Shown piece after piece: positions 7,604 to 38,000 of a DNA stretch of 64,000 bases. Position 1 is the first letter of the stretch, and each line of letters begins with the position of its first letter. The notes under the pieces are model-generated. The model was not told the origin of the DNA, did no database searches, and was given only the letters and a program-made list of their open reading frames with translations. Source of the stretch: Candidatus Sumerlaeota bacterium. GTDB lineage: Bacteria > Sumerlaeota > Sumerlaeia > SLMS01. Location: assembly GCA_020848155.1 (NCBI GenBank), contig JADLAR010000017.1, forward strand, positions 6,554-70,553, written 5' to 3'. The position numbers and the translations under genes were made by a program.

Positions 7604-7930
7604 AACGGTGGCTGGGAACTCAGGAAAATTTTACGGACTGGTGAAACAGATGAGTCGCGCTTCGGTTTCCTCCAACATTGCGGAAGGTCAATCATGCGGA
7701 CACTTGCGTGACTCTCTCCGATTCATCGACAACGTTCGCGGACCAGTCGCGAAGTTGGGGACGCAGACATTCCTTGTCGGCAAGCCTGAGTTCCCCGACC
7801 AATGCAGGTTCGATTCTGTTGCCACCCAAGTTACCTCTGTCGGACGCCCATTGAACCCATTGAAGAACGCACTTCAAAAGCGCGAAAACGCCTACGAAAT
7901 TCATTCCCAGTAGCCTTACTCTCAGCCCCC

Positions 7931-8818: not shown

Positions 8819-8821
8819 CGC

Positions 8822-17097: not shown

Positions 17098-19851
17098 CTA
17101 AAAGATCTTGTACTTGATTTCGATCTCTTCGTCGCTGCGGCCATCCGGTTCGCGTGGCTGTTCTGCCAACGGCTTCGGATTCCCCGTCCCCGAGGGTGGC
17201 GAAAATGCCGGAAAGGGTGCAGGGTCATTCTTCGGGGCGCCACCCGGCAGTGGATTCTGGTCACCGGACAAACTTCCGCGGCTGGATCGCCGCGCTGGCG
17301 GGCCGCCTCCGCCGGAAATTCCCAAGATGGAACCAAGCCTCTCTGTCATACCGCCGGGGAAGGCCGTATCGGGACGACTTCCTGATCCTGTTCCTGATCC
17401 GCGGGAACCCGGCGAAATATCCCCGCGGCTTCCCGGCCGCGGAACATCCGGGCGGGAAACGGACTGGCGGGATGCCGCCGGAGCCAACGGATCCAATTTC
17501 GGCGTCGCTTCCTTTGAGGCTCCCGGATTCGGGATTCCGGGGAGGTTGAAGAATCCGCTCTGCCCGGGGCTTGGCGCTGCGGGCGTTTGCGCCACACCGG
17601 AGGCCCCGGCGGGCTTCAACAAATCCGCGCGACTGGTGCGCAACGGAGTCTTGTCCGTCAGGCCCAATGCGCTCATCAACCCGCCGCCGATTCCACCCAG
17701 CGCCGCTTCCTCGGGAACATCGGCGTCCGCGTAGTACACCGGATCATGCAGCCATTCGTTGTCGGCTTCGTCCTGCGCCGAATCAACGACACGCGTGGAA
17801 GTTTTCAGGAGGCGATGTTGAATCTGGGCGTACTTGAACAAACCACCCGTCATCGCGTTGCTCAGGCTTAGGAACATTCCCTTCGGTTGCCACCAATCCG
17901 TGTGGAACAGAAGCCCCGCTGCCATCCCTTCGCGCCCGTTGTACTGGCCATCCTCCCGCACAACAAGCTGCTGTGCAAACAGGCGCGCATCCTCCGCCCG
18001 TGAACGATAGTAATCGTCGCCGATGAAATTCGCCAGCTTCACCATCTCGCGATAGCTGATCAGCCCCTGGCACCCCGTGGCGGGTGATGCGACGGAAGTG
18101 ATGTCGCCACCGCGGGTCGCAATCTCGTAACGCCCCAGCATCGAATTGCGCGTGAACGCCACGTTGTAGCTGAAACGCCAGGTCAGCGCCAGATCCGCCG
18201 CCTTCTTTGCGAGGGCCAGCCACTTCGTGTCGCGATCGAGTTCGTACAGGTTGATGTAGGCGACCAGCGCCCAATGACAATCATCGCTCGTGGGCACGCA
18301 GTTCAAGTCTTCAACGGTTCCATACAGCAGCCCATTGCGGACAAACTTTGCGTAGTAGTCGCCCGCCTTGATCGCAACTTCGCGGAAATGCGGCTTCTGT
18401 AGCAGCGACGAGCCCGTTGCGAACGCAGCGATCCACGGAAGCCCTCCGCATCCATCGAAACTTGTGGGGCGACCTGTCGTCAGGTCGTAATAACATGGAA
18501 ATGCGCCGTCATCGCGCTGTGCGCCCATGGCATAATTCAGCGACGACAAGGCCGCTTCGTACCATTGATGGTGATTCGTGCTGTTCCTGATCTCCAGTCC
18601 CAGCGATCGCAGGATGAACAGCACCGCCTCCGCCACCGTGCGCGAATGCGCCGTTCCGTCCTCCGGTCCGAAGCTGCACGACCATCCGTTCTCCTCTGTC
18701 CACGCCGGGAAGATCGTCCCCCCCGGTGCGATTGCCCCCGTGAATTTGTTCAGGATGGCGACGCCGGCGTTGATCGACTCCACGTGCTTCGATTCACGCC
18801 CCGCATGGAGCAACGCGTAGGCAGGCAAGGCCCCGCTCAACCAGCCCGCGTGCATGTGCGCGCGTTCCGTGTACGCACCCTTGCGCCCGAAGTGCCGGTC
18901 AAACGATGCGCTTTCGTAAAGCGCCGCCTGGCGGCTGTCGAAGTGCCAGCGCAAAAGCCCTGCGTGCGCCACCTGCTCCTGTTCCTCCAGGGGAGCCGCA
19001 GCCTTCGCTGGCGGATTTTCCTTCTCATCCGCATAGTAGAGATACCGAACAACCCTGCCATGCGCGTGAAGGTCCGGTTGATCGATGCCCGCCAGAAAGG
19101 TCGTCACCATCGGCGTCGCCTTCGGCAGGACCACGAAGGTCTCTTCCGGTTCGATCTTGTCCTCATGGCAGAATGAAAATTTCACCGGCACTTCGCGGTA
19201 GGGAAAATCCACCCCCAGCGTTGGCTGCCCTTCCTCCGACCCGAAGTGCAGCCCCGTCATTCCAACGCCTTCGGGGTTCTCGCGCGTTCGCCCGAAGACC
19301 CCCTGGGTGGAAACGTAACCGAAGCACCCGTACGTCCATGCACACACAAGCGGCGTCGCGGCGCGATCCGAGCGGAGCGCCCAATTATTTGAAACCAGCT
19401 TGCGCAGGTCCCGGTTTATTTCAGAGTAGGTTGGGTAGACACGCGTGCTTCCCGGTGGCCTGTTGTTGCCATAGAACACGCCGGGCACAAGCCAGCGCGG
19501 ATCGGCCTCGCCCGTCAGGATCATCTGCGCAGAGACGCGAATTCGCATCTCATCAACGGCATTCTCCACCCGCATCTCAACCCGCAGCGCATCCAGTCCT
19601 TCCGCTGCTGCCGTGATGCGCCCATACAGGGCAAGCCGCTGCGAGGTGAAGCCGTGGAAATCCGCCGCGTTCGGTCCCGCCGGCACAAGCCGCTGGATCT
19701 GGAAGATCGCGGGCGGCGATCCAGCCTCCGTGATGGTGAACATCAACAGCGGCGTGACAATCACCGGCTGTGCGTCGCCGGTCCGCTGAAGGCGAAGGCC
19801 CCGCGATTCGAAGCTAAGCTGATATTTGCCGACCTGGACGGATGCGGGCAC
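17098..19851 (-). CDS. Large hypothetical protein: a ~690-aa Cys/Trp-rich globular region followed by a ~230-aa Pro/Gly/Ser-rich disordered tail
   Basis: 917-aa ORF with no N-terminal signal peptide. The globular part contains motifs such as DDCHWALVAYINLYELDRD, GCGGLPWIAAF and GWSCSFGPEDGTAHS. These may indicate an (alpha/alpha)-barrel hydrolase- or LanC-like fold, but no family can be assigned by eye. The C-terminal part (plus-strand coordinates ~17100-17800) is low-complexity PGSG-rich and ends EEIEIKYKIF. Confidence 0.6.
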   Translation of the reverse strand: MPASVQVGKYQLSFESRGLRLQRTGDAQPVIVTPLLMFTITEAGSPPAIFQIQRLVPAGPNAADFHGFTSQRLALYGRITAAAEGLDALRVEMRVENAVDEMRIRVSAQMILTGEADPRWLVPGVFYGNNRPPGSTRVYPTYSEINRDLRKLVSNNWALRSDRAATPLVCAWTYGCFGYVSTQGVFGRTRENPEGVGMTGLHFGSEEGQPTLGVDFPYREVPVKFSFCHEDKIEPEETFVVLPKATPMVTTFLAGIDQPDLHAHGRVVRYLYYADEKENPPAKAAAPLEEQEQVAHAGLLRWHFDSRQAALYESASFDRHFGRKGAYTERAHMHAGWLSGALPAYALLHAGRESKHVESINAGVAILNKFTGAIAPGGTIFPAWTEENGWSCSFGPEDGTAHSRTVAEAVLFILRSLGLEIRNSTNHHQWYEAALSSLNYAMGAQRDDGAFPCYYDLTTGRPTSFDGCGGLPWIAAFATGSSLLQKPHFREVAIKAGDYYAKFVRNGLLYGTVEDLNCVPTSDDCHWALVAYINLYELDRDTKWLALAKKAADLALTWRFSYNVAFTRNSMLGRYEIATRGGDITSVASPATGCQGLISYREMVKLANFIGDDYYRSRAEDARLFAQQLVVREDGQYNGREGMAAGLLFHTDWWQPKGMFLSLSNAMTGGLFKYAQIQHRLLKTSTRVVDSAQDEADNEWLHDPVYYADADVPEEAALGGIGGGLMSALGLTDKTPLRTSRADLLKPAGASGVAQTPAAPSPGQSGFFNLPGIPNPGASKEATPKLDPLAPAASRQSVSRPDVPRPGSRGDISPGSRGSGTGSGSRPDTAFPGGMTERLGSILGISGGGGPPARRSSRGSLSGDQNPLPGGAPKNDPAPFPAFSPPSGTGNPKPLAEQPREPDGRSDEEIEIKYKIF

Positions 19852-20026: not shown

Positions 20027-21130
20027 ATGCGCATCCTTTTTGTTTCCGACCAAGATCAATGCCGGGGCCCCATGGCGCGGGCCATCGCGGAGCGCATGGC
20101 CCGGCAGCAGATGATGGACAGCGCCGTCTTCGATTCCGCCGGCCTGCGAGCACCAGCCGGCGAACCTCCCACGCTCGAAGCCGCATCCTTCATGCACGGC
20201 GAAAAAATTTCCATCATCAACCATCGCAGCAAGCGCCTCACCGTTCCCCTCGTCGACGGTGCCGACGTCATCCTGTGCATGACCAAGGCCCAGATGGACG
20301 AGGCGCGCAAGGCTGCCGGCCCCGACTACGCACCCAAATTCGTCCAGATCAACGAGGCCGTCGACCTGACAACCACCCGCATGGACGTCATGCCACCCGG
20401 TCCCAATACCGCCGGCATGCGCCGACTTTACGCCGCCCTCAGCGCCACCATCGGCCGCCTCATTCGCACCCTTGAAGAACCCGACGCCTCACCCGAATAT
20501 TTCGGTGCGAAGACAATGCCCAAGAAGCTTCGGCCCGGTGCCGGCGGCGCAGGCCCCCGCGTCAGCGAAACCACACTCGATCCCGAAAAGCGCGTCTTCA
20601 TTGCGAACATGATCTTCAGCCTCATCGAACGCGCCTTCGAGCCAATGACCACCGGCGCCCTGCTCGATCAGCTTGCCGCCGCCGGGCACCAACTCCCCAA
20701 AGCCGAACTTGAGGAACTCCTGCGCCAGGACCTCCACGGCCTCGCGCGCATGGACAAGGATGGTGCCTGGAACATCATCCACGGCGCAGCCGAGCGCAAA
20801 CGCGACAAGGCCCGCGCCGAAGCACGCGCCCGCGCCGAGGACCAACGCAAAGCCCGCGAAGCCGAAAAGCCCAAGGATTTGGACAAGAACCTCACAGAGG
20901 ACGTCGCGTTTGAACTGCTCGGCATCAGGAAGGAAACCTCCCGCGCCGATGCCCAGAAAAAATACCGCGCACTCCTCAAGCGCTACCACCCCGATCGCTT
21001 CCACGACGACCCTTCATTCCTCGAAATGGCCGAGGCCAAGACCCGCCGCGTCAACGCGGCCTGGGAATTCTTGAAGGAACGCCTCCCGGAAGGCGAAGCC
21101 CCCCCCGAGGCGGAGGAAGTACAAAGTTAG
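20027..21130 (+). CDS. Fusion protein: N-terminal LMW-PTP/ArsC-like domain with a degenerate P-loop, and a C-terminal DnaJ J-domain
   Basis: The N-terminus MRILFVSDQDQCRGPMARAIAE aligns to the LMW-PTP P-loop (L/V)CxGNxCRSPxAEA. The nucleophile Cys is replaced by Ser while the second Cys and the Arg are kept. The C-terminus FELLGIRKETSRADAQKKYRALLKRYHPDRFHDD...VNAAWEFLKE is a J-domain with the HPD motif. Confidence 0.7.
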   Translation: MRILFVSDQDQCRGPMARAIAERMARQQMMDSAVFDSAGLRAPAGEPPTLEAASFMHGEKISIINHRSKRLTVPLVDGADVILCMTKAQMDEARKAAGPDYAPKFVQINEAVDLTTTRMDVMPPGPNTAGMRRLYAALSATIGRLIRTLEEPDASPEYFGAKTMPKKLRPGAGGAGPRVSETTLDPEKRVFIANMIFSLIERAFEPMTTGALLDQLAAAGHQLPKAELEELLRQDLHGLARMDKDGAWNIIHGAAERKRDKARAEARARAEDQRKAREAEKPKDLDKNLTEDVAFELLGIRKETSRADAQKKYRALLKRYHPDRFHDDPSFLEMAEAKTRRVNAAWEFLKERLPEGEAPPEAEEVQS

Positions 21131-21139
21131 GCGGCTCCC

Positions 21140-22351
21140 TCAGCCACAACGCTCGATCACCATCGCGATGCCCTGACCCACGCCGATGCACATTGTGCAG
21201 AGCGCACGCTGCTTGCCGGTTCGCGTAAGTTGTCGCGTGGCGGTGGTGAGCAAGCGCGCGCCGCTCATGCCGAGCGGATGACCCAGCGCGATGGCACCAC
21301 CGAGTGGGTTGATCCGCGGATCATCGTCGGCGAGCTTCAACGCCCGTGAACACGCGAGCGCCTGCACGGCAAAGGCCTCATTCAGTTCAATGATGTCCAT
21401 GGCATCGAGCGTAAGCCCCAGGCGCTGGAGTAATTTTTGGGTCGCCGGAACAGGGCCCATGCCCATTATCCGGGGCTGGACGCCGGCCGTGGCCGCGCCA
21501 ACGATTCGGGCACGAGGCACAAGGCCATGGCGCGTGGCCGCCGCGGCGGAGGCAATCAGCAGCGCCGCCGCCCCATCGTTGACACCGGATGCATTTCCAG
21601 CCGTGACGGTGCCGTCACTGCGAACGAAAGGTTTCAACTGTGCAAGTTTCTCGATCGATGACGGCCGCGGATGCTCGTCCTTTTCGACAACAACGGGATC
21701 GCCCTTCCTGCGCGGAATCGTGACGGGAATGATTTCCTCTGCAAGCTGCCCACCCTGCTGCGCGGCGGCCGCCTTCGTCTGGCTCCAACAGGCGAAGCGA
21801 TCCTGATCCTCGCGGGAGATGGCAAAGTCGACCGCGAGATTTTCCGCAGTCTCCGGCATTGAGTCGACGCCATGCGCCGACTTGATGCGGGGGTTGATGA
21901 AACGCCACCCGATCGTGGTGTCCTGAAGTTCGGCCTGTCGCGAAAATGGCTCGGCGGCTTTTCCCATGACGAAGGGGGCGCGCGACATGCTTTCCACGCC
22001 GCCAGCAAGGATCACCTCCGCCTCACCTGCGGCAATCGCGCGGGCCGCAGTGGCAACCGCATCCATGCCAGACCCACAAAGGCGATTCACAGTGACTGCG
22101 GAAACGCCCACGGGCAGGCCCGCCAGCAACGACGCCATGCGCGCCACGTTGCGATTGTCTTCACCCGCCTGATTCGCGCATCCCATGATCACGTCATCAA
22201 GCGCGTCCCAATCCATCCTGGCATTGCGATCCATCAATGCGCGAATGGGAATTGCGGCAAGGTCGTCCGTGCGCACCGAGGACAACCCCTCGCCATAACG
22301 GCCAACGGGGGTGCGAATCGCATCGCAGATAAAGACGTCTTTCATGGTCAT
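21140..22351 (-). CDS. Acetyl-CoA C-acyltransferase (thiolase II, 3-oxoadipyl-CoA/acetoacetyl-CoA thiolase-like)
   Basis: 403 aa with thiolase signatures (VNRLCGSGMDAV around the catalytic Cys; C-terminal NEAFAVQALA and GGAIALGHPLGMSGAR; final CIGVGQG). Confidence 0.9.
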   Translation of the reverse strand: MTMKDVFICDAIRTPVGRYGEGLSSVRTDDLAAIPIRALMDRNARMDWDALDDVIMGCANQAGEDNRNVARMASLLAGLPVGVSAVTVNRLCGSGMDAVATAARAIAAGEAEVILAGGVESMSRAPFVMGKAAEPFSRQAELQDTTIGWRFINPRIKSAHGVDSMPETAENLAVDFAISREDQDRFACWSQTKAAAAQQGGQLAEEIIPVTIPRRKGDPVVVEKDEHPRPSSIEKLAQLKPFVRSDGTVTAGNASGVNDGAAALLIASAAAATRHGLVPRARIVGAATAGVQPRIMGMGPVPATQKLLQRLGLTLDAMDIIELNEAFAVQALACSRALKLADDDPRINPLGGAIALGHPLGMSGARLLTTATRQLTRTGKQRALCTMCIGVGQGIAMVIERCG

Positions 22352-23688
22352 GCCCGCGCTGCCACCGTCATTGCCGGAATCTGCTTCGCGATCAGTTGGA
22401 AGCCCCTCTGAAGCTCAACGCAGAGTTGATCGATTTCCACCTCTGTCATCGGCGTCGAAATGGTGCCGGAGCAGGTGTTGATCAGCATGAATCCATGATT
22501 GAACATGTGGTCGAGAAGCGTTCGAACTGCCGTGGCCTCGTTGGGATTCGCATAGGCGGCACGATAATCGGCAGGTGGTTCGGGCTTCATGTGAATGCGG
22601 AACATCGACCCGGCACCGGTCACACAGGCGGAAACTCCCTCGGCATTGATGATTTCTGCAATCTGGCGGCGCGCACGCTCACCAAGGGCATTGAGACGAG
22701 CAACCTCCCCACGGTCAAACAGGCGCATTGCCGCGAGGCCCGCGGACAAGGTCACCGGATTGGCGGAGAATGTGCCCGAATGCGGAAAGAGCACCTTGTC
22801 CGCCAGCGGATTCAACACATCCATCACGTCTGCACGCCCGGTGATGGCGCCGACGGGAAACCCACCGCCAATCGCCTTGCCGAGCGCCGTCAAGTCGGGG
22901 CGTTGCCGGTACCACTCCTGCGCTCCACCATACTCCGACCTGAATGTGATCACTTCATCAAAGATGAGCAACGCGCCATTGCGTCGTGTCCATCCATGAA
23001 GTGCCTCGATGAAGTCCGCAGAGGCGGGAACCATTCCCACGCGGTGGGGAATCGGATCAATCAGCACGGCCGCCAGGTCGGATCGATGTTGATCGAGAAG
23101 CGCTAGGGCGCGCACCGAATCGTTGAAGGGAAGGATGACAACCTCATCCAATGCGGAGGCCGGGGTTCCTGCGGTGACGGGAACGCTGCGCGGATGCGCA
23201 GCCTCCCCCCAGTTTGCGGGGCTGGCCGTCTGGCTGACTTCCGCATAATCGTAAAGCCCGTGATAGGCGCCCTCGACCTTGGCGATCTTCGGACGCGACG
23301 TGAATGCACGCGCCGCCTTGAGGCAGCACATGATCCCCTCGGTCCCTGAATTCACGAAGCGTATCTTTTCAAAGCTCTGGGAGCGCCCCACCATGTGTTC
23401 GGCAAACTCGACCTCCACCTCCGTGGCGAGCGTGTACGCCGTGCCGCGGTGAAGTTGTTCGGTCACGGCGGCGATGATTGCCGGATGCGCGTGGCCGTGA
23501 ATGAGCGAAGCCATGTTGTTTGCAAAGTCGATGCGGCAATTGCCGTCGATGTCGGTCACGCGGCATCCCTCGCCATGCGCCGCGTAGGCGGGATGGGGCT
23601 TGCGAAGAACCGCGTTTCGGCTGACTCCGCCGGGAAGGACCTTCAGTGCACGCTCGTAGAGATGCTCACTGCGTGTTTGACCCTTCAT
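22348..23688 (-). CDS. Class-III PLP aminotransferase/aminomutase, HemL (glutamate-1-semialdehyde 2,1-aminomutase)-like
   Basis: 446 aa. The N-terminus SEHLYERALKVLPGGVSRNA resembles the HemL N-terminus, and the rest has class-III aminotransferase architecture. It overlaps the neighbouring genes by 4 bp on each side. Confidence 0.8.
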   Translation of the reverse strand: MKGQTRSEHLYERALKVLPGGVSRNAVLRKPHPAYAAHGEGCRVTDIDGNCRIDFANNMASLIHGHAHPAIIAAVTEQLHRGTAYTLATEVEVEFAEHMVGRSQSFEKIRFVNSGTEGIMCCLKAARAFTSRPKIAKVEGAYHGLYDYAEVSQTASPANWGEAAHPRSVPVTAGTPASALDEVVILPFNDSVRALALLDQHRSDLAAVLIDPIPHRVGMVPASADFIEALHGWTRRNGALLIFDEVITFRSEYGGAQEWYRQRPDLTALGKAIGGGFPVGAITGRADVMDVLNPLADKVLFPHSGTFSANPVTLSAGLAAMRLFDRGEVARLNALGERARRQIAEIINAEGVSACVTGAGSMFRIHMKPEPPADYRAAYANPNEATAVRTLLDHMFNHGFMLINTCSGTISTPMTEVEIDQLCVELQRGFQLIAKQIPAMTVAARA

Positions 23689-24374
23689 TGTGATTCGCTC
23701 CTGGGGCGTCCATCGATGATTGGCGCGCCGGTCTTTTCCTGAAGTTCCCTGAATGTGATCCCCGGCGCGATTTCCTGCGCCACGAAACCTTCCGGCGTCA
23801 CATCAATGATCGCGAGGTTTGTATAGACACGATCAACCACGCCGCATCCGGTCAGTGGATACGTGCATTCGGCAACAAGCTTTGGTTCCCCGGTTTTCGT
23901 CGTATGCTCCGTCAGGATCACGACGCGCTTAACCCCCGCCACCAGATCCATGGCACCGCCGACAGCGGGAATCGCATCGGCCTCCCCCGTGGACCAGTTC
24001 GCAAGGTCGCCGCGCGACGACACCTGCATTGCACCCAGGACGCTCACGTCAAGGTGTCCGCCCCTGATCATTGCAAAGCTGTCGGCGTGATGGAAGTAGG
24101 CGGCACCGGCAATCGCCGTGACCGGCTTCTTCCCCGCATTGATCAACTCGGGATCCTCACTGCCGGCGGCGGGCGAAGGCCCCACGCCGAGCAACCCGTT
24201 CTCCGTGTGAAAGATGACCTCGTGATCCGGAGGCACATGCTGGGTGACCAGTTCGGGAATACCGATTCCCAGGTTCACATACGCACCATCGTGGATGTCA
24301 CGCGCGGCAAGGCGCGCCATGTCGTGGCGCGACCATCCCGTTGGTTGTTGGCTTGGCTGGCTCATGGGTAGCAC
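23685..24374 (-). CDS. 3-oxoacid CoA-transferase subunit B
   Basis: 229 aa, conserved throughout with CoA-transferase beta subunits (GIGIPELV ... ENGLLGVGP ... SFAMIRGGHLDVSVLGA). Confidence 0.9.
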   Translation of the reverse strand: MLPMSQPSQQPTGWSRHDMARLAARDIHDGAYVNLGIGIPELVTQHVPPDHEVIFHTENGLLGVGPSPAAGSEDPELINAGKKPVTAIAGAAYFHHADSFAMIRGGHLDVSVLGAMQVSSRGDLANWSTGEADAIPAVGGAMDLVAGVKRVVILTEHTTKTGEPKLVAECTYPLTGCGVVDRVYTNLAIIDVTPEGFVAQEIAPGITFRELQEKTGAPIIDGRPRSESQ

Positions 24375-25072
24375 CTGCCTTCCTTCACCAGGTGTGATTC
24401 CTGTTCCGGGCAGGGCACCTCCACCAGGCGCTGGACAAAAATTCCCGGCGTCACGACTGCTTCCGGATCAATGCAACCGGACTCCACGACCTGGCGCACC
24501 TGCACGATGGCGACCTTGGCGGCCATGCACATGATCGGCCCAAAATTCCGCGCCGTCTTTGTATAGACAAGGTTGCCATGGCGGTCCCCCCGGTCGGCGC
24601 GAACCAATGCAAAGTCCGCCCGCAACCCGCGCTCCATCACATAATCGCGACCATCAAAGGTGCGCCGCTCCTTGCCCTCGCCAAGCTGCGTTCCCACCGC
24701 CGTGGCCGTGAAAAACGCCGGGATTCCGGCACCGCCGGCCCGAATCCGCTCCGCCAGGGTTCCCTGCGGCACGAGTTCCAATTCGATCTTCCCCGCACGA
24801 TAAAGCTCGGGAAAAACCATCGAGTTCGTACTTCGTGGATACGAGCAGATCATCCGCGCGACCTGCCCATTCGCGATCAATGCCGCGAGGCCAACCCGCC
24901 CGCTCCCGGTGTTGTTGCTGATCACCGTCAGGTTGCGGGACCCCTTGTCCACCAAGGCGTGGATCAATTCAATGGGGCTTCCCGCTTCACCAAACCCCCC
25001 GATCATTACCGAGGCCCCGTCCCCTATGTCTGCCACCGCATCGGCCGGTGAACTCCACCTTTTCTGGATCAT
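24362..25072 (-). CDS. 3-oxoacid CoA-transferase subunit A
   Basis: 236 aa, conserved with CoA-transferase alpha subunits (GASVMIGGFGEAGSPIELIHAL ... SNNTGSG). Confidence 0.9.
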   Translation of the reverse strand: MIQKRWSSPADAVADIGDGASVMIGGFGEAGSPIELIHALVDKGSRNLTVISNNTGSGRVGLAALIANGQVARMICSYPRSTNSMVFPELYRAGKIELELVPQGTLAERIRAGGAGIPAFFTATAVGTQLGEGKERRTFDGRDYVMERGLRADFALVRADRGDRHGNLVYTKTARNFGPIMCMAAKVAIVQVRQVVESGCIDPEAVVTPGIFVQRLVEVPCPEQESHLVKEGRCYP

Positions 25073-26673
25073 GTAAGTCCTTGTTGAGCCATGCGCTTGC
25101 CGTGAACTTCCTCCAAGGCGTGCTCGATTTCGTCAAGCTCCTCCTCAAAGAAGAACTTGTCCGTATCGAGCGGCAGCAGGCGATCCACGCGGTTTTCATG
25201 TTCATCATAGACCGCAAGGAACACCTTGTCCATCCACGCCATGTTGCGCGCTTCGTTGAACTTCAGCGCCAATGCCTTGCGCCCACCAACGGTTGCCTCG
25301 CCCAGGATTGAAAGCTTGCCTGCGGAGGTGGTCATCGTAATGTAGCGCGAGGGGCGATGCAGCGACGCCAGCGACCGGTAAATGAGGTTGGAAATCTTCT
25401 CGATGTCGGCAAGCGGCGCCGCGAAATAGTGATGCTCGCCCGTTGGACGCGCACAATACATCGAGTGAAACCGGATCAGCAGCGTCGCAAGGATGTTCCC
25501 AAGGTCGATCCAGTTCTGTGCAGACCGCTTGATGTCCGTCTTCCCATCCGCGTCCATGAACAGGCTCACGTGATTCATGATGGGGCTTTGGCTGCGCACC
25601 ACCACGCCGTGTGCCTGCAACCGGCGCACCGCCGCGATGGTCGTCGGGTTTAGCAGTTCACGCGGCGTCGAGAAATGCGCCATCCACGACAACTGCACGC
25701 CATTCTCGTGCATGATGTCGAACAGTTCCAGGATCTTGCCGTAGCGCTCGGTCAGAATCATGTCCGGCTGGTACGTCAACGCCCGCGAGGCGATACGGAC
25801 CGTGCGGATGTGCAGCAGCGCCGGATCCTCGATGATCGGCATCACATACTGGCGCATCCGCTCATAGGGCAGGTACCCCGCATCACCACCCGTGATCAGC
25901 AGGTCCGTCACCTCTGTGTGCTTGCGCAGGTAATCGTGGATCTGCGCGATGTCATCCTGGATGAACATGTCCCGGTCACCACGCACCTGGGCATGGCGGA
26001 AGCAATACGTGCAGAACGCAAAACACGTCTGCGTGGACTTGTCGAAAACCAACTGGGTCTGCGGATACTTGTGCTGGCTGCCCTCAACGATCTCGATGCC
26101 ACCATCCTCGCGCTCAAGCCACGGCTTGTTCAGGAGCTGATGCCCATCGTGCGGATTCGTCTGGTCCATGTACTGCTCAACAACGATCGCGCGCGCCTCC
26201 GGTGTTCCCGCCGCCGCATACTTTGCCACGATCTCGGGCCGCATCATTCCCGGCTGGGGAAAGATCAACTGGTACAGGGAATCGTTCTCGTAGCGGCTCC
26301 AGTTGATCGCGTTCAGAATGTGACTCGTCGCCTTGAATCGATACACCTCCACGAACAATTCGCGCTCGATGACATTGCCAAGGTGTATGCCGTTCTCCCT
26401 CAGGACCCCCAACACACGGCGAAAGCCCTCCAGCCCCTCATACTGGGCCCGTTCCGGAAACAGGACGGCACTCGTTTCCATCAAACCCGACAGGTGGGGA
26501 TACGTCGCGTGCAGGCGCGCCAGCAGCCCCCGTGGCAGTAGACGCTCGCGCTGGATGATGGCGCGAATTTCCTGCGGATAGCCATAGCGCTCCATCATCG
26601 CCTCGATATCGGACTCGGTCATCCTGGCCGAAATCGTGTCCTGCGGCGATGGAAGCGTGGTACTCTTATTCAT
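25069..26673 (-). CDS. KamA-family radical-SAM aminomutase (lysine/glutamate 2,3-aminomutase-like) with a ~130-aa N-terminal extension
   Basis: The Cx3Cx2C cluster CFAFCTYCFRH and downstream KamA-family blocks are present. The start is placed at MNKSTT (26673); the track ORF extends to 26781. It overlaps the CoA-transferase A start by 4 bp. Confidence 0.8.
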   Translation of the reverse strand: MNKSTTLPSPQDTISARMTESDIEAMMERYGYPQEIRAIIQRERLLPRGLLARLHATYPHLSGLMETSAVLFPERAQYEGLEGFRRVLGVLRENGIHLGNVIERELFVEVYRFKATSHILNAINWSRYENDSLYQLIFPQPGMMRPEIVAKYAAAGTPEARAIVVEQYMDQTNPHDGHQLLNKPWLEREDGGIEIVEGSQHKYPQTQLVFDKSTQTCFAFCTYCFRHAQVRGDRDMFIQDDIAQIHDYLRKHTEVTDLLITGGDAGYLPYERMRQYVMPIIEDPALLHIRTVRIASRALTYQPDMILTERYGKILELFDIMHENGVQLSWMAHFSTPRELLNPTTIAAVRRLQAHGVVVRSQSPIMNHVSLFMDADGKTDIKRSAQNWIDLGNILATLLIRFHSMYCARPTGEHHYFAAPLADIEKISNLIYRSLASLHRPSRYITMTTSAGKLSILGEATVGGRKALALKFNEARNMAWMDKVFLAVYDEHENRVDRLLPLDTDKFFFEEELDEIEHALEEVHGKRMAQQGLT

Positions 26674-26804
26674 GATAGAAACTCCGGTGCTCAGCTTAAA
26701 AAACCACGGGCAACGATACGATCGTTCGCTCCAACCCTTGCGGTGCGCAAGGAGAAACGGAATCCCCGCCTCGGAACGCACAACAAGCCCCGGTAGAAAT
26801 CGAC

Positions 26805-26895
26805 AGGCCCGGGCAAGTACCCCACAGGCCGCGAACTACAAGAACCCTCACCCCCCGTGGTACAAAATATGGGGTGAGGATCAGCGTCACATCAT
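26805..26895. repeat. Left copy of an imperfect inverted repeat flanking the DUF4411/ImmA cassette; contains a 9-bp-stem hairpin
   Basis: 26817-26875 (gtaccccacaggccgcgaactacaagaaccctcaccccccgtggtacaaaatatggggtg) matches the reverse complement of 28889-28945 at about 48 of 59 positions. An internal hairpin pairs cctcacccc (26846-26854) with ggggtgagg (26871-26879). Confidence 0.55.
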
Positions 26896-27033
26896 GGTTG
26901 ATAGCGAGGGGTGCACAAATGAGGGCTGGTCACACGCGCTCGCGATCGTAAGACTCGCAGTTGATGGTCAGATAGCCATTCCCGAGGAGGTGCTCCTCTA
27001 TGACGGATTCAAAGGCCAGTTCTGAGGTCCGCT

Positions 27034-27528
27034 TTATATAGCCCGCCCCAGAACGAATCTTGCGCGCTCTCGACGCAGCATCTCATACGGGGTTACGCAG
27101 GTGATCCCCAACCCAATGCAGACATCGGGGATCTTGATCTTCCGGATCGAGGACGAAGGAACTTCATGCGTCACCACGATGTGGCCGCCTGCGTGCGCCT
27201 GCGCGGCAAGGTAGTAGTCCGCCACTTGGAGGAAGTTGGCGATGGCTGCGGGCTCGTAGTGCCGGCCGGTTGTCCATTCGCTCACCGACCGAAATGACGG
27301 CGCGACTGTCCCGTCTGGCGGCACGAAGAACGAAGGTCCTCGCACGTCCGCCCATTCGGACAGTTCGTCCTCAACATCACGCAACTCGTAGCCCACTTTC
27401 TCCACGCTGAAGACCGAGCCTGCGCGGTGACGCTCGACGAGCCACTCCCAGAAGGCCGGACAGAAGTCGAACCCATAGTGGAGATTCTTTGCGCTGATGA
27501 AGACGTTGGCGTCGAGGAGGTATGCCAT
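27034..27528 (-). CDS. DUF4411-family protein, predicted PIN-like nuclease domain
   Basis: 164 aa beginning MAYLLDANVFISAKNLHYGFDFCPAFWEWL..., the typical DUF4411 N-terminus with a PIN-like acidic D in LLDAN. It lies 1 bp downstream of the XRE-ImmA gene. Confidence 0.7.
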   Translation of the reverse strand: MAYLLDANVFISAKNLHYGFDFCPAFWEWLVERHRAGSVFSVEKVGYELRDVEDELSEWADVRGPSFFVPPDGTVAPSFRSVSEWTTGRHYEPAAIANFLQVADYYLAAQAHAGGHIVVTHEVPSSSIRKIKIPDVCIGLGITCVTPYEMLRRERARFVLGRAI

Positions 27529-27529
27529 T

Positions 27530-28678
27530 TCAGAACCTCATTCCAAACCCGGCGCTCAGGCGGCGAAACGTCGACATCTTCCTGAAGCCGAGCATTCGGA
27601 ATGCCTCGGTGAAACTCGAACGCCCCTCCAATGTGCTAACTACCACGGCCCGCGCGAATCGCTTGCCAACCCGGGCGCCGAGCGTGTTGTAAAAGCTCCC
27701 CCCACCCTCCGTCTGAGCGGAGAGCGCTTGAAGCCGAGCGAGTTCCGCCCGAAAGGCGGTCCTGTAATCTTCGCGAGACAGCCCTCCAGCATCGTGGATT
27801 CGACGCAGAATGACAAGCCTGCTGACCTTGAAGACCCGCGCCAGACGATCAAGCTCCCCGGGCAATTCCGCAGCGGGGTTGTAGGTCCTGCGGAACACCA
27901 GCATCGGAACCAGCAGTTCCGCTGCGACCGCGTCGCACCAACGCTCGACATTGTGGCTGGGGGCCGTTGTCAGTTCCACATCAGAAAGCGCAGATTGTCC
28001 GACCCAAATGTGCGCGAGTTCGTGGGCGAGGGTGAACATCTGCGCGGACTTTGTATCCGACCCATTCACGAAGACTAGCGGCGCGTTCGCATCGACCAGA
28101 GCGAACCCCCTAAACTCCTTTGGGTTGAGCTTGCGATGATTGTCGCTTCCGACCACTCCGCTGACCATCACCAGCACTCCCGCAGCGTCCACCAGTTCGA
28201 TGAACCGCCGCAGGGCATCGGTCCAATTCGACATCCGGCTTCGCTCCTCCAAGTCAAAACTGAGTGTCGCCCGCATTTGGGCCGCTGTTTCCACCACATC
28301 ATTGTTCGGGGAGGCGGAGCCGACAAATGGGATTGGCGGTTCCCCCACCGTCCGGGCGAATTCGCGATACCAATCCTGGCGCTGTTGACAGAGATAGATC
28401 GTGTCCAACAGGTCGGGGCTGGGTGCGGTGAAGCGCTCGCCGGGCATCGTTCGGAAATCGGGGACGGGGATTTGTTCCTGCGGAGGTTCCGCGAGGAAAA
28501 GATAACCAACCGGCACATGCACGGCCTTGGCAAAACTTTCCAACTGCTTCATCGTGGGCATGGCCTCGCCACGCTCCCACATCGGCAGCTTGGCGAATCG
28601 CCCGGCGAGCGATTCGAGGTCATGCCCGGTGCGTTCCCGCGCCCAGCGGAGGAGTCCTGGCTGTACTTCTACACGCAT
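27530..28678 (-). CDS. XRE-family HTH domain fused to an ImmA/IrrE-family zinc metallopeptidase
   Basis: An N-terminal HTH-like region is followed by the HEXXH motif HELAHIW and conserved ImmA/IrrE blocks (FTLAHELAH ... ERWCDAVAAELLVP). The start is assigned to MRVEVQ (28678); the track ORF extends to 28705. Confidence 0.8.
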   Translation of the reverse strand: MRVEVQPGLLRWARERTGHDLESLAGRFAKLPMWERGEAMPTMKQLESFAKAVHVPVGYLFLAEPPQEQIPVPDFRTMPGERFTAPSPDLLDTIYLCQQRQDWYREFARTVGEPPIPFVGSASPNNDVVETAAQMRATLSFDLEERSRMSNWTDALRRFIELVDAAGVLVMVSGVVGSDNHRKLNPKEFRGFALVDANAPLVFVNGSDTKSAQMFTLAHELAHIWVGQSALSDVELTTAPSHNVERWCDAVAAELLVPMLVFRRTYNPAAELPGELDRLARVFKVSRLVILRRIHDAGGLSREDYRTAFRAELARLQALSAQTEGGGSFYNTLGARVGKRFARAVVVSTLEGRSSFTEAFRMLGFRKMSTFRRLSAGFGMRF

Positions 28679-28857
28679 CACGCTGGCATTACGCCTTCCT
28701 TGCACCTTATGTCCACCCTACCTTTCCTTATCCACGCGCCACAGAGTTCGCGTCCCAACTCCGCCTGGGATGCCCTTCGGCGAGTTCATGCCGCACCACG
28801 TCGAAAGTAAATCAAGCCAAGAGTTCGGTCGCGGGACTCGTCCTTGGCTCGGTAGAA

Positions 28858-28950
28858 GACCCACATCCTCAGGGTGGGATATGTGATGCCCCCTTTTTCT
28901 GTACCATGGGGAGTGAGGGTTTTCGTGGTTCGCGGCCGGTGGGGCGCGGG
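28858..28950. repeat. Right copy, in inverted orientation, of the repeat flanking the DUF4411/ImmA cassette
   Basis: The reverse complement of 28889-28945 is ~80% identical to 26817-26875. The hairpin is degraded to a 4-5-bp stem in this copy. Confidence 0.55.
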
Positions 28951-29165
28951 GCCGTGGCGGTCTCCCCTGCGTTCATTTTGGGCAAGGTCAGGCTGGCAGC
29001 AAGCGTTGCGGCTGTCAAGTAGCCCAGCCAGGAGTGGGGCGGTGCTTGTTGCATGCCTCGCGCCGGTCGCCGCCGATCACGCCAATGTCCTTCATGCCGG
29101 TGTTTTCCCCTAGCGGCATGGCCCCTTACCCGGTAGGCACCTGCTATTCCTGATCAGGAGACTGG

Positions 29166-31541
29166 GTGAGCTTGAGTTTCATCAGACATTTCTGCCTGGC
29201 AACCGTCCTTCCCGGATTGTTGCTCGCGTCTCCATCCGTTTTCGCCCAGGACGCCGCACGTTCCCCCGCCTCCTCCATCACGGCGCTGGCTCCATCGCGC
29301 GAGGCCCTGCCCCCCAATGGGGCGCAAATCCGGGATATTCGCGTGGAGGGTGCCAACCGCGTTTCCCCGAACGAGATCCTGGCCCGCATGGAACTGCGCG
29401 CCAACGGTGCCTTCGATGCGGACGCGTATCGCCGCGATCTTCAGTCCATTTCCGATTCGGGAAAGATCAATCCGCTCACGCTGAGGATCGATTGGGAGAC
29501 GGCACCCGATGGCGCGGTGAACCTGATCGTGCACGTGCAGGAAAATCCCGTCATCAACACCATCACGATCGTTGGCAATGATCGCTTCAGCCAGAAGACG
29601 CTGATCGCGCAGCTCGACTACAAGATCGGCGATGTGGTGCCGACGGCGGTGCGCTCCTCCACCGTTCGCAATTTTGAAAATTTTTACAAGAATGGTGGAT
29701 ACAAGGCATCGAAGATCACCGTGACCAGCGAGCCGGTTGCGGATGCGCCCGGGGCGGTGGACATCCTCATTGTCATCGACGAAGGCATCCGTGTGAAAGT
29801 CCGCAGCCTTGTCATCAATGGGAACAGGCATTTCAGCGACTTCTATATTTCGACGCAGTTGACCAACGCCCGCGGCATCCTGTTCTTCAACAACTACTTT
29901 GATGAATCGGCGATGGAGGACGACCTGGCCATCGTGCGCGGGATGTATGAAAGCGCAGGGTTCCTTGATGTGAAGGTCTCCCGCAGCGGCCTCGTTTACA
30001 ACGAGGACAAGAAAGCCGTCACGGTGATGATCGACGTTGTGGAAGGGCCGCGCTACACGGTTACCGGCGTCAGGACGGAGGGTGTGACATCGCTGACGCG
30101 TTCCGAAATCGACAAGAGCACGGTTGAGCTTCCGCGTCGCCACTTCAATGGCAAGCGCCTGGCAAAGGCGCTTGATCGCGTTCGCCGAATCTACGGCGAC
30201 CAGGGCTACGTGGACAACGAGGTCAGCTACCGACTCGACAAAAGCCCGGAGAACCAGACGGTTTCGATCGTCATGCAGGTGGCCGAGGCCCCCGTCGTCT
30301 ACGTCGGGCAGGTGCGCATGAAAAAAGAGGAGTATCCCTACAATGTGGACTCCAAGCCCCTGAGCAAGTTCATCGGTTGGTTTGCGCCGCCAACAAAGGA
30401 TGAAACGGTGATGCGGGAGGTTCGGCTGAAGCCGGGCCAAAAATACCGCAGCGCGGATGAAGTGCGCACCATCGAGCGGCTCAAGAACCTTGGCATCTTC
30501 CGGCGGGTGGAGGTGAATCGCGATCCCACAGCGCAACCAAGTGTGCGCGACGCGGTTGTGAACGTGGAGCAGGACCCCAACGCGGCCTTCATTGGCGCGA
30601 TGGCCGGCATCGGCGAATCGTCCGGCCCGGCGCTCACCGTGCAACTGATGCAGCCGAATTTCAACGGGCGCGCCGATCGCTTCAATGCTTCGGCGACCAT
30701 TGGAACACGCAGCCTTGGCTATCGCATTGGCTTCTTCGATCGCTATCTGGGCGATTCGGACACGTCGATGGATACGAACCTGTACTACCTGACGGATCGC
30801 TATCGCGAGTACCGCGAAAGGACGCTCGGCGCATCGACTGAGTTTGGCCGTCCGCTGAGCGAGTATGTGCGTGGGTACCTTAGGTTCCGCGCGGAATACG
30901 TCAGTTATTCGGACTTTGATGAGGACGAGACGGAGGAGGATTTTGGCAGCTATCCGGTGTTGGCGGTGCGCCCCTCGGTGGTGTACGACCGGCGCGACAA
31001 TGCTGCCTGGGCAACGCGCGGATACCTGGTGGGTGGTGGCATCGAGACGGGCATGGCGGATGGCTTCCTGCTGAAGTTCATGCACAGTTACGAATGGTAC
31101 AAGAAGCCGTTCGAGCGGAACGACCTGATCTACGCGTATGAGCACACGGTGGGGCTGATGCCATACGATGCGACAAACATCGGATTGAGCGAGCGCTTCT
31201 TCGTGGGCGGCTCGGGAAGCCTGCGGGGCTTCCAGTATCGCGAAGTCGGCCCGCGCGATCGCAAGAATGAGGACCTGGCCATCGGTGGTGCCACGCGCAT
31301 CACGCAGCGCCACGAGCTGCGCTATCCCTTCAATGACTTCATCAAGGGACGTGTCTTCACGGACTTTGCGATCCTTGAGCGCGGCCCGTTTGCGCTGGGC
31401 ACACCGCGCATGGGCAGCGGCGTCGGCGTGATCCTGGACTTCGGCGCGATCACTGCGGAGGTCGACCTTGCGGTGCCGGTGATCAGGAAGAGCACCGACA
31501 AGGCGCAGTATTTCCACATCCGGGTTGGTAGCGGCTTCTGA
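29166..31541 (+). CDS. bamA: Outer membrane protein assembly factor BamA (Omp85) with POTRA domains
   Basis: 791 aa with a signal peptide, POTRA-repeat regions and a C-terminal beta-barrel that ends HIRVGSGF with a terminal aromatic residue. Confidence 0.9.
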   Translation: MSLSFIRHFCLATVLPGLLLASPSVFAQDAARSPASSITALAPSREALPPNGAQIRDIRVEGANRVSPNEILARMELRANGAFDADAYRRDLQSISDSGKINPLTLRIDWETAPDGAVNLIVHVQENPVINTITIVGNDRFSQKTLIAQLDYKIGDVVPTAVRSSTVRNFENFYKNGGYKASKITVTSEPVADAPGAVDILIVIDEGIRVKVRSLVINGNRHFSDFYISTQLTNARGILFFNNYFDESAMEDDLAIVRGMYESAGFLDVKVSRSGLVYNEDKKAVTVMIDVVEGPRYTVTGVRTEGVTSLTRSEIDKSTVELPRRHFNGKRLAKALDRVRRIYGDQGYVDNEVSYRLDKSPENQTVSIVMQVAEAPVVYVGQVRMKKEEYPYNVDSKPLSKFIGWFAPPTKDETVMREVRLKPGQKYRSADEVRTIERLKNLGIFRRVEVNRDPTAQPSVRDAVVNVEQDPNAAFIGAMAGIGESSGPALTVQLMQPNFNGRADRFNASATIGTRSLGYRIGFFDRYLGDSDTSMDTNLYYLTDRYREYRERTLGASTEFGRPLSEYVRGYLRFRAEYVSYSDFDEDETEEDFGSYPVLAVRPSVVYDRRDNAAWATRGYLVGGGIETGMADGFLLKFMHSYEWYKKPFERNDLIYAYEHTVGLMPYDATNIGLSERFFVGGSGSLRGFQYREVGPRDRKNEDLAIGGATRITQRHELRYPFNDFIKGRVFTDFAILERGPFALGTPRMGSGVGVILDFGAITAEVDLAVPVIRKSTDKAQYFHIRVGSGF

Positions 31542-35056: not shown

Positions 35057-38000
35057 GTGAACTCCCCAGCGATTCGTTTTTCAGTATTTCTTGGCTTTTG
35101 TGCCGCCTTGACGATGATTGGCGGCAGTGCCCCAGCGCAGGCAACGGTGCACCAGCAACAACTTGAGGACATCGCCACGCAGCCCGTGCCGGAAGACGAC
35201 ATCCTGCAAATCGAGCAGGATCGGCTGAACTTCAAGGACACGAATGCCGGCGCGACTGCAGAGAACCAGGCGCGGGGAACCACGACGACCATTGGCGACG
35301 ACTTCATCGTCTTTGGCTACATGCAATCGTCCGCTCAACTTCCGCATACGCGGTGGGAGTCCCTGACACATGTGGCATCCGGGTTCGTTGAATTCGACAG
35401 TGCGGGGAACCTGATACCTGCGTCCCTTTCGGCAAACTGGACGAATCGCGATGCGACGCTTCAAGCAACCGGCGCCGCGCAGAACGCCGGGTGCAAGGTT
35501 ATCATGACGGTGTTGAACGACGGCTTCGATGTGTCCGTGATCAACGCCGTGATGACGAACGCGACGGCACGTGCGCAGTTGGTCTCGGACATCTCCACGG
35601 CCGTGACAGGTGATGCCTATTGCGCGGGCGTGACATTCGACTTCGAGCCGTTCAGTTGGTCATCGGCTGCGACTGCGGGAATGACGACTTTCTTCCAAGA
35701 CCTTCGCGCGGCGCTTCCACCGCCGTACGAACTCAGCGTGTATGCGGACCCGACGCCGTCTGCTTCGCGCTGGGACCTGCCCAACCTTACCCCCAGTCTG
35801 GATTACTACCTCTACAGTTGCTACGATTATGCAACGGGGCAAACGCCACACGCCATTTCGGACTACGATGGGTATATCACCCAAATCAATAATTTCTACC
35901 TGGATGGAGGCGTGCCGGCGAGCAAGATGGTGGCGGTGCTGTCATCCTATTCGGGGCGCTGGGAGAACACCTCTCAATACAACGTTTCCGGCGGACTGGA
36001 TCGTGTGGCCGGTGGGTTCACCGACGGGTTGTACGAAACCACGTTGTGGACACAGTACGGTGGGCCGCAGGTGGAGAACTACGACACCGGCGACGAGGTA
36101 AGCTGGCACACGTGGAATGACGGATCATCGGACTTTGTTCGGACGTGGGATTCACCGCAATCCCTGGAATTCAAGATCCGGACGGTTATCAGTAATGTGG
36201 ACACCACGGCGAGTCCGAACAACAAGGGGAAGCGGTTGCGCGGTGTGGGGTTCTGGTCGCTGATGTGGCTGGCGGAAACCTCATCAATCAATCTCATCTC
36301 ACAGGAAGGCACTGTCGGCGGTGTCGTAAGCCGCACACGAACGTACCCACAGGTCTATCAGCTCTGCCAGGAGGCCCTGAAGAATCCCGGCCAGACAAAA
36401 TTCCTGATCACGGGCTTTGAGGGAAACGACCCGCGATGGCGTGACCCGAACGCGAACCCCGATGCCGCGAACCTTGGCACAACGACAGACAGCGAGGGAA
36501 CAGTGACCGCACCGGCGGGAGCCGGCCGCCCGGCGAATACGAACAAGTGTGCGCAGGTGGCTTTCACGTTCACGGCAGGGGCATCGCAACAACTTGCGTT
36601 CGAGCATGAGTTGCTGGCGGACTCCCGGGTTTCCACCCTGCCGGACACAAACGCCGCCGCCGCGGTCTTCACGCAGAACACCAAGCTCAACGCATACGTC
36701 CATGTTCCCTCGGCCTATGCGGGGCGCACGGTGCGCATGTTGGTCTTTGATTCCAATCGCCAGTTGGAAATGTCTCCTGCGTTGAGCCTTGGCGTGGCTG
36801 GCTGGCAGCAACTTTCCTGGGACCTGACGGATGCGGCGCAGACGACGGGCTTCAACACGAACGATCCGCGCTTCTTCGACGGAAATGGCGTGATCAATTC
36901 AGCAGGGACCGGCGCAAAGGACATTGGCTTCTTTGGGTTCCTCGTACAAGGTGGCGGGGCCGGCAGTGGAACAATCAGCTTCGACGAAATCACCTATGAG
37001 CACGTGAATCCTGCAAACCTGAATTTCAAGATCAATGAGTTCCGCTATGCGACCGTGGGCGGGGAGTTCATCGAGATTCATGGACCTGCGGGGCAAAGCA
37101 CGCCGGCGGGCCTGCAACTGCGGCTCTTCAGCGGAACCACGCTGACGGGCGCGCCGTACTCGACGCTTGCGATCGGAGGCATCGTCATTCCCGCCAACGG
37201 CCTGCTTGTCGTCGGCGATCCCTCTGTTGTGAATGTGGACGTGACACCGGGAATGGGGGACTCGGTGGATGACATGCTGGATACCAGCCCCTGTGGCATC
37301 CAGATCTACGACACGGGAACAGGCAACGTTTACGACTCGGTTGTGTACGAAGCGCGCGCCGGGCTGACCGGGCTTGTGCGACTGGGAACGCTCGGCGTGA
37401 CGGACGAGGGATATCCGTGGCTGGGCGAGGCGACCGGAAACTACGCCTTCGGTCGCTATCCCGATGGCACGGATACCAATGTGAACTTCGACGATTTTTC
37501 AAACCTGATTGCAAGTCCGGGACTGAGCAACGGAAACACCGTGTCACCACCAGCCACGTTCAACTTTTCGAGCGTCCCCACGGGCATGTTCCAAAGCTAC
37601 CAGACGCTGGCGGGGAACATCGTTCCGTCAGGTGTGGGCGCTTCGCCGAGCGGCGGAAACGTTTATCGCTGTGTCGACACGACAGGTGGCGGAAACAACG
37701 GCTTCATCGGTGACGCGGCCCTGGGCTACTCCGGCGGAGGCTACACCGTGACGGGGGAAATCTTCATCCCCAACAGCGCGGCACCGGCGCAGGCCATCGG
37801 CGTGGGAATCTGTGGAAGCCAGGGATCCACGTTCTTTTCAACCTCCTCGGACAGCAGCGGCTATGATACCGGGTACTGGATCGTCTTCGAGAACCAAAGC
37901 GGCATCGGGCTTGCCGATGGACGTGCGGATCACGCCGACACTTTCGAATTCATTTTTCCACAGCAGGAAGGCAACCCGGCGATTCTGCTGGGCAGCATTT

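Follow-up and report, generated by a model that had tools for sequence, protein, structure and literature searches.

The DNA analyzed here, which we call the window, comprises 64,000 nucleotides (nt) of contig JADLAR010000017.1 from a Candidatus Sumerlaeota bacterium (assembly GCA_020848155.1, positions 6,554 to 70,553 of the forward strand). Between a kamA-like gene and bamA it holds two adjacent minus-strand genes, one encoding a DUF4411 (PIN-like) protein and the other a helix-turn-helix (HTH) protein fused to an ImmA/IrrE-type metallopeptidase, and this pair is bracketed by an inverted repeat. On balance, we favor the view that the locus is an orphan toxin-antitoxin (TA) or defense pair from a type I restriction-modification (R-M) operon that now lies between decayed right-end fragments of IS3-family insertion sequences (ISs). 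The features on which this view turns are as follows, in window coordinates.

26779..26883, plus strand: left repeat copy with core 26820-26874, interpreted as the decayed remains of the right end of an IS3-family IS
26881-26883, plus strand: terminus of the left repeat copy, ...GGATCA-3', facing the pair
26906..27037, minus strand: hsdR 5' pseudogene stub of ~44 codons, IKRTSELAFESVIEEHLLGNGYLTINCESYDRERV followed by a stop, overlapping the DUF4411 stop codon
27034..27528, minus strand: DUF4411 (PIN-like) gene, 164 amino acids, predicted toxin/nuclease effector; PF14367
27530..28705, minus strand: HTH (XRE-like) + ImmA/IrrE M78 metallopeptidase gene, predicted antitoxin/repressor; PF06114
28706..28883, minus strand: non-coding stretch upstream of the antitoxin gene, presumed promoter/operator
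28884..29085, minus strand: right repeat copy plus the sequence next to it (~200 nt together), interpreted as the 3'-terminal remnant of an IS3-family IS

The gene pair and its relatives

The original prediction had identified the two genes as DUF4411 and XRE-HTH/ImmA peptidase separated by 1 bp, and both the identities and the spacing proved correct. With Pfam, the DUF4411 protein matches PF14367 over its full length (E=4.8e-50; 169.9 bits against a cut-off of 23.5; residues 3-158 on profile positions 1-159), while the product of 27530-28705 contains a Peptidase_M78 domain (PF06114, E=3.7e-12) with the motif HELAH; the spacer between the genes is 1 nt. Judging from homologues, which begin at about residue 10 of the product, the true start of the antitoxin gene is probably the ATG at 28678, which would yield a protein of 382 amino acids. 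No sigma-70 consensus site was found in the presumed promoter region (28706..28883).

Residues D6, E43, E48, D104, E122, and D135 of the DUF4411 protein are invariant in 40 homologues. The PIN-type active site of DUF4411 proteins has been described as four negatively charged residues (PMC5499597), and the conserved acidic residues fit that description. In the antitoxin, the HExxH motif and a downstream block, E..WC..vAAElLvP, are at least 95% conserved in 59 aligned homologues. Both proteins also match chains of a single deposited complex, PDB 9VZY, in which an "HTH cro/C1-type domain-containing protein" of 393 amino acids is bound to a "DUF4411 family protein": the antitoxin matches 9vzy_A (E=7.5e-25) and the DUF4411 protein matches 9vzy_D (E=1.6e-8). 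No publication for this structure was found.

One scan of species-representative genomes yielded 80 homologous loci (L002-L081) from more than 15 phyla. All 80 have a homologue of the HTH-peptidase directly upstream of the DUF4411 gene in the same orientation, with amino-acid identities of the pair homologues of 62-72% and 51-68%. Relatives of the DUF4411 protein number in the thousands, with ~70% identity even in phyla that are far removed. Two small, adjacent, co-oriented genes at 1-nt spacing, with a partnership conserved throughout the sampled loci, have the organization expected of a type II TA system. According to Matelska et al. 2017 (PMC5499597), DUF4411.1 genes lying downstream of a DUF955-HTH fusion gene belong to predicted three-component TA systems. 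ImmA-type antitoxins are established in the RosmerTA defense systems (Millman et al., 10.1101/2022.05.11.491447; Ernits et al. 2023, PMC10440598), and the ImmA hub antitoxin of Ernits et al. pairs with PIN-like toxins (PMC10440598). The TA/defense role proposed in the original prediction agrees with PMC5499597 and PMC10440598 as well as with the defense-island context of the homologous loci.

The two genes are an ordinary member of an already described family, and the pair is known, widespread, and horizontally moving. With the HTH-DUF955 + DUF4411.1 systems and with 9VZY it has in common both protein families, the gene order, the tight junction, the HEXXH motif, and the PIN-type acidic residues. 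There is no essential difference in the genes themselves; the window copy stands apart in being an orphan outside a defense island that carries an hsdR stub and putative IS-end scars. As for RosmerTA, the window antitoxin has the RmrA architecture (HTH plus M78 zinc-peptidase) and matches the PADLOC RosmerTA model RmrA (PDLC03949) with E=3.1e-17. Its DUF4411 partner, on the other hand, matches none of the PADLOC models, RmrT included, and the validated RmrT toxins have other folds, for example membrane-depolarizing ones.

Position in type I restriction-modification operons

To describe the neighborhood of the pair, the open reading frames (ORFs) of the 80 loci were clustered, the largest clusters were annotated, and hsd genes were located by tblastn. 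The largest clusters correspond to HsdS, directly upstream of the pair, HsdR, directly downstream of it, and HsdM. One or more hsd genes are present in at least 45 of the 80 loci, in the order hsdM-hsdS-pair-hsdR. Downstream hsdR genes were found in 40 loci, 31 of which have no more than ~60 nt between the DUF4411 stop codon and the hsdR start. AbiE, Abi_C, and Fic genes are frequent further neighbors, and a conjugative coupling protein is encoded near the pair in some sphingomonad loci. A coupling of PIN-like genes to type I R-M was noted in general terms by Matelska et al. (PMC5499597).

The hsdR stub in the window has its start codon mutated to ATA and contains an in-frame stop, beyond which weak similarity continues to ~26906. 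It is 59% identical to the first 34 residues of the HsdR encoded at L002 (tblastn, E=2e-9) and also matches HsdR N-termini in L060, L041, L054, L005, and L032. L002 is a pair-bearing locus of the related metagenome-assembled genome (MAG) RI_26; it has a type I R-M context and lies on a contig other than the one with the kamA operon of that genome. Because the window retains these ~44 codons of hsdR, we infer that the pair came from a type I R-M operon. A search for an hsdS remnant on the other side, upstream of the antitoxin gene (28706..28883), gave only chance-level matches. The claim that the repeat brackets exactly two genes stands as far as the two genes are concerned, but has to be amended by the hsdR pseudogene stub, which also lies inside.

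The pair is accompanied by only a 5' stub of hsdR, 34-110 codons long, at four of the homologous loci as well: L004 (6480-6581), L007 (6492-6815), L012 (2455-2642), and L063 (6423-6560). These belong to Phycisphaera, Vicinamibacterales, Phycisphaerales, and an alphaproteobacterium, respectively, and no further hsdR sequence lies within 6 kb.

Direct repeats of 94-182 nt that are 89-98% identical flank the pair at three other loci: L013 (4768-4893/6524-6649), L044 (4294-4475/6185-6365), and L037 (2833-2926/4747-4840). The L013 repeat joins the 3' end of hsdS to the initial codons of the ImmA gene, and that of L044 is apparently hsdR 5' sequence; repeats at these junctions suggest tandem duplication or recombination. 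An integron-cassette origin was considered for these loci and rejected, the L013 repeats being duplicated hsdS/ImmA sequence and not attC sites. Nor does the window have the attC sites of an integron cassette: its repeats are inverted and there are only two.

A nuclease gene embedded in a type I R-M operon has a precedent in prrC of the EcoprrI locus, which encodes an anticodon nuclease kept in check by the R-M proteins themselves. The present pair resembles prrC in lying between hsdS and hsdR in 31-45 of the 80 loci, where co-transcription is probable. Unlike PrrC, which is an unrelated nuclease, DUF4411 comes with a dedicated antitoxin, and in the window the R-M genes are gone. We raise as a tentative and rather doubtful idea that the pair preserves itself and persists after its host type I R-M operon has gone, leaving orphans with hsdR stubs in the window and in at least four further lineages. 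Such recurrence may reflect an addictive antitoxin that sets the limits of deletions; alternatively, the pair may be a PrrC-like back-up nuclease, co-transcribed with hsdR, that later becomes a stand-alone TA system when restriction is lost.

The flanking inverted repeat

A repeat search identified the arms 26802-26874 and 28890-28962 as an inverted repeat of 73 nt with 77% complementarity and a spacing of 2015 nt; the runner-up in the 64-kb window measures 35 nt. Stringent local alignment delimits an ungapped core (26820-26874/28944-28890) with 47 of 55 identical positions, and the count of 48 in 59 given in the original prediction is recovered once four extra positions are joined to this core. 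When the upstream flank was aligned with the reverse complement of the downstream flank, the window scored 32.5, compared with a mean of 9.7 (standard deviation 1.3, maximum 15.5) for a null set of mismatched flank pairs from the homologous loci. Overall, the arms are 77-85% identical and share no perfect identity longer than 10 nt. Their similarity ends abruptly on the pair side and fades gradually on the outer side; beyond the core, toward kamA and bamA, it is not significant, being no better than in shuffled controls. The outer limit of the left copy is uncertain (26779-26802). The putative right remnant (~200 nt) stops at the point where homology to L083, a related Candidatus Sumerlaeota contig, resumes.

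Several other properties of the repeat had been described beforehand and were found again. The left copy forms a hairpin with a 9-bp stem (26846-26854/26871-26879) that is mostly missing from the degenerate right copy, as both sequence and fold indicate, and the repeats are overlapped by two spurious ORFs with similar peptides. Coding potential of these small ORFs was rejected, since substitutions between them are not biased to synonymous sites, and, as the two copies fold differently, a common RNA structure was rejected as well. Scans for tRNA, tmRNA, and Rfam families in the repeat and the DNA around it gave no matches, and a scan for sigma-70 promoters and terminators made no call at the repeat.

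Outside the window, a pattern drawn from the repeat, GGCCGCGAACNACNANAACCCTCAC, had no match in genome, metagenome, or viral collections. A second pattern, AACCCTCACNCCCCNTGGTACA, matched a single metagenome contig, L088, and no viral contig. Because a match to a 20-base pattern could be due to chance, the homology of L088 rests on additional positions: where both window copies agree, 17 of 26 further positions also match. With a profile built from the three sequences, all copies score alike (55-59 bits). In L088, the element directly follows an IS3-family transposase gene (Pfam HTH_21 + rve + rve_3) whose product matches the NCBIfam IS3 equivalog with E=3.9e-62 and reaches the last model position; the terminus lies 141 nt after transposase residue 222. 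This IS (103-909 and 969-1568), the right end of which resembles the window repeat, is inserted ~60 nt upstream of an extracytoplasmic function (ECF) sigma-factor gene.

Counted from the sharp end, the first bases of the three copies are TGATCCTCACCCC, TGATGCCCCC, and TGACCCTCCCCC. All of them end in TGA.../...TCA, in keeping with the IS3-family terminus consensus 5'-TG...CA-3' (PMC3299598). The nearest annotated plasmid relatives of the L088 transposase, ~52% identical, belong to the ISMdi16 family, and their termini, TGGCCTGCCCCC, agree with L088 at 9 of 12 positions. In the window, the right-copy terminus 5'-TGATGCCCCC begins at 28884 and faces the pair (core 28890-28944). The flank beyond this copy encodes a putative transposase C-terminal motif, PHSWLGYLTAATLAAS, at 29039-28992 on the strand running into the right copy. 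This motif aligns to residues 212-248 of the L088 OrfB (PHSALNWVTPATFAAS...) with a BLASTP E of 5e-4, obtained in a single comparison over 16-39 amino acids. The distance from motif to terminus is 125 nt in the window, 124 nt in L089, and 141 nt in L088.

From these sequence comparisons, we judge it reasonably probable that the repeat copies are scars of an IS3-family element. The abrupt end of arm similarity on the pair side is what would be expected if that boundary is an IS terminus. Similarity that extends more than 60 nt from the terminus indicates that both arms are probably the same (right) end, and thus that the IS copies were inverted relative to each other. Both termini face the pair, and the putative IS bodies would have lain on the kamA and bamA sides. 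This arrangement is the one expected either for a composite transposon of which the inside ends remain or for two IS copies, each of which removed neighboring DNA as far as the pair.

Several results weigh against this view or against the assignment of the pair. The outside copy is a single one (L088), found with a 20-base pattern that could match a collection of that size by chance, and beyond the core the window and L088 show no significant DNA similarity (p=0.06). The putative transposase remnant is short and goes undetected by Pfam and NCBIfam; when it was compared with 1.8 billion proteins by phmmer, the only hits were unrelated repetitive proteins. The 64-kb window contains no intact IS3 copy. 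Two independent deletions, each sparing the inside end, are not a parsimonious history. Finally, the AlphaFold model of the DUF4411 protein has a pLDDT of 51, too poor for a fold search.

The original prediction had instead seen the pair as cargo of a small mobile or invertible element. On that account, the arms would be the terminal inverted repeats of a non-autonomous element akin to a mobile insertion cassette (MIC) or a miniature inverted-repeat transposable element (MITE), or else the ends of an invertible segment, with the TA genes carried inside. A significant inverted repeat does bracket exactly the accessory genes, and the pair is clearly mobile horizontally across phyla. We nevertheless consider this account quite improbable. 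The terminal repeats of a MITE or MIC should face outward and be accompanied by a target-site duplication, but here both the sharp boundary and the TGA termini point toward the pair, and no direct repeat abuts either candidate boundary of the segment. An invertible segment fares no better: the genes scanned at ~12.9-45 kb include no recombinase or transposase, and the arms, at 77-85% identity, have at most 10 consecutive identical bases in common. The hsdR stub inside the segment also counts against this account. Moreover, among the 77 homologous loci with enough flank to be evaluated, none has a flanking inverted repeat above the null (maximum 14.0), so that the homologous pair occurs without the repeats in 77 of 77 cases, and the window repeat sequence has no match in these loci, in L001, or in L082-L087.

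A different possibility is that both sides carry a dispersed hairpin of the host, such as a repetitive extragenic palindromic (REP)-like sequence or a terminator/insulator, and that the transposase next to it in L088 is a coincidence or the result of IS targeting. This would account for the GC-rich hairpin in the left copy and in L088 and for the presence of short fragments without an IS body. Furthermore, the strands leaving the pair read hairpin and then U-rich tract in both window copies, which could stop transcription into kamA/bamA. We hold it to be unlikely, however: pattern searches allowing 3 mismatches, blastn-short, and nhmmer profiles revealed no third copy in the 64-kb window, related loci totaling ~1 Mb contain none either, the right copy has not kept the hairpin, and the terminator scan did not call the sites. 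An IS end is favored instead by the TGA/TCA termini, by the resemblance to ISMdi16-type ends, and by a putative transposase motif at the right distance. The same termini, along with the 15% divergence of the arms, would be left unexplained if the inverted duplication had been made on the spot by illegitimate integration or fold-back repair without any IS. That origin fits a repeat that is unique to the window among the loci examined and sits at the junctions of foreign DNA, but it does not predict homologous sequence in an unrelated contig such as L088, and we regard it as very improbable.

Genomic site and proposed history

The segment lies between two host features:

25069..26673, minus strand: kamA-like radical-SAM gene, first of a five-gene operon (21140-26673); flanking host DNA
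29166..31541, plus strand: bamA; flanking host DNA, with an upstream region from ~29090 in common with L083

The start of the kamA-like gene in the NCBI annotation is probably 26595. In L083, whose BamA is 87% identical, the gene order of the window is kept on both sides, and 223 nt (9657-9879) separate the LMWPc-DnaJ gene from bamA, compared with 7983 nt (21118-29100) in the window. The extra DNA consists of the five-gene kamA-like operon plus the pair. In L087, from a more distant relative, a gene for a CHASE3-PAS hybrid histidine kinase fills the same gap (7512-9911), whereas in RI_26 (L001) the kamA operon is conserved among other neighbors and adjoins an acetyl-CoA synthetase gene. In this lineage, the stretch between LMWPc-DnaJ and bamA thus varies in content. 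Because L083 has no pair at this site, the pair is accessory here, as had been proposed, and the empty site that was sought is provided by these 223 nt. The earlier description of an insertion between the aminomutase operon and bamA was not borne out by the comparison, the L083 site having neither the pair nor the kamA operon, and the relatives compared give no evidence of an ancestral kamA-bamA junction into which the pair came.

The operon at 21140-26673 encodes a KamA-like radical-SAM protein (534-570 amino acids), two CoA-transferase subunits, a class III aminotransferase, and a thiolase, and may represent a pathway for beta-amino-acid degradation. The KamA-like protein falls far under the cut-offs of all NCBIfam aminomutase equivalogs and has more than 1400 close relatives. 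The thiolase stop codon lies only 9 nt from that of the DnaJ-like gene. Elsewhere in the window, a gene for a 1117-amino-acid protein with a GH18 domain (35057-38410) contains near its 3' end a direct repeat with a 12-nt period and seven overlapping 37-nt copies (38238-38376). An ORF of 917 amino acids without a Pfam domain (17098-19851, minus strand) is conserved in position, with counterparts of 897 amino acids in L083 and 915 in L087.

In the history that we favor for the pair, it would have been cut out of a type I R-M operon, its usual home being between hsdS and hsdR, with ~44 hsdR codons kept as a dead stub. The IS3-family fragments could then be inside ends left by a former composite transposon, on which the pair would have arrived, or scars left when IS-mediated deletions took away the remainder of the R-M operon; under either option, the IS bodies would have been lost later. 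A comparable decay is documented for ISApl1-mcr-1-ISApl1 (Tn6330), in which the cargo is left after loss of the flanking IS copies (PMC5821093). The likeness lies in a short cargo carved from its original locus, IS copies later lost, end remnants, and immobilized cargo. In contrast to Tn6330, only ~100- and ~200-nt IS3-family end fragments would be left in the window, in inverted orientation, and neither outer ends nor target-site duplications survive, so that a past transposition of the segment is not demonstrable. Since only inside-end fragments are left, the segment could not be moved by an IS3 transposase. Most likely, the 2.0-kb segment is today a fossil, neither mobile nor invertible.

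By analogy with homologues and the literature, the module itself may work as follows. The upstream gene would encode an RmrA-type antitoxin and autorepressor, an HTH-ImmA/IrrE zinc-peptidase, which binds and silences the DUF4411 PIN-like nuclease toxin encoded downstream and represses the operon through its HTH domain. A stress or phage signal acting via the peptidase domain would free the nuclease, which would then cut RNA and stop growth. The left hairpin and the U-rich tract that follows it may end the transcript of the pair before kamA.

The locus provides a worked example of a defense or addiction module that would have been stripped from an R-M operon and stranded between housekeeping genes, with putative IS scars at the cuts. 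It also counsels caution, since an inverted repeat around accessory genes need not represent transposon arms; here, it is the polarity of the ends that decides. More than half of the 80 diverse copies of the pair are located between hsdS and hsdR, in many cases with an overlap into the start of hsdR, and this position makes a functional link of the PIN-like toxin with type I restriction testable. The interest of the locus lies in the history that it records and in a strong, quantifiable link to type I R-M, including the recurrent orphans with hsdR stubs.

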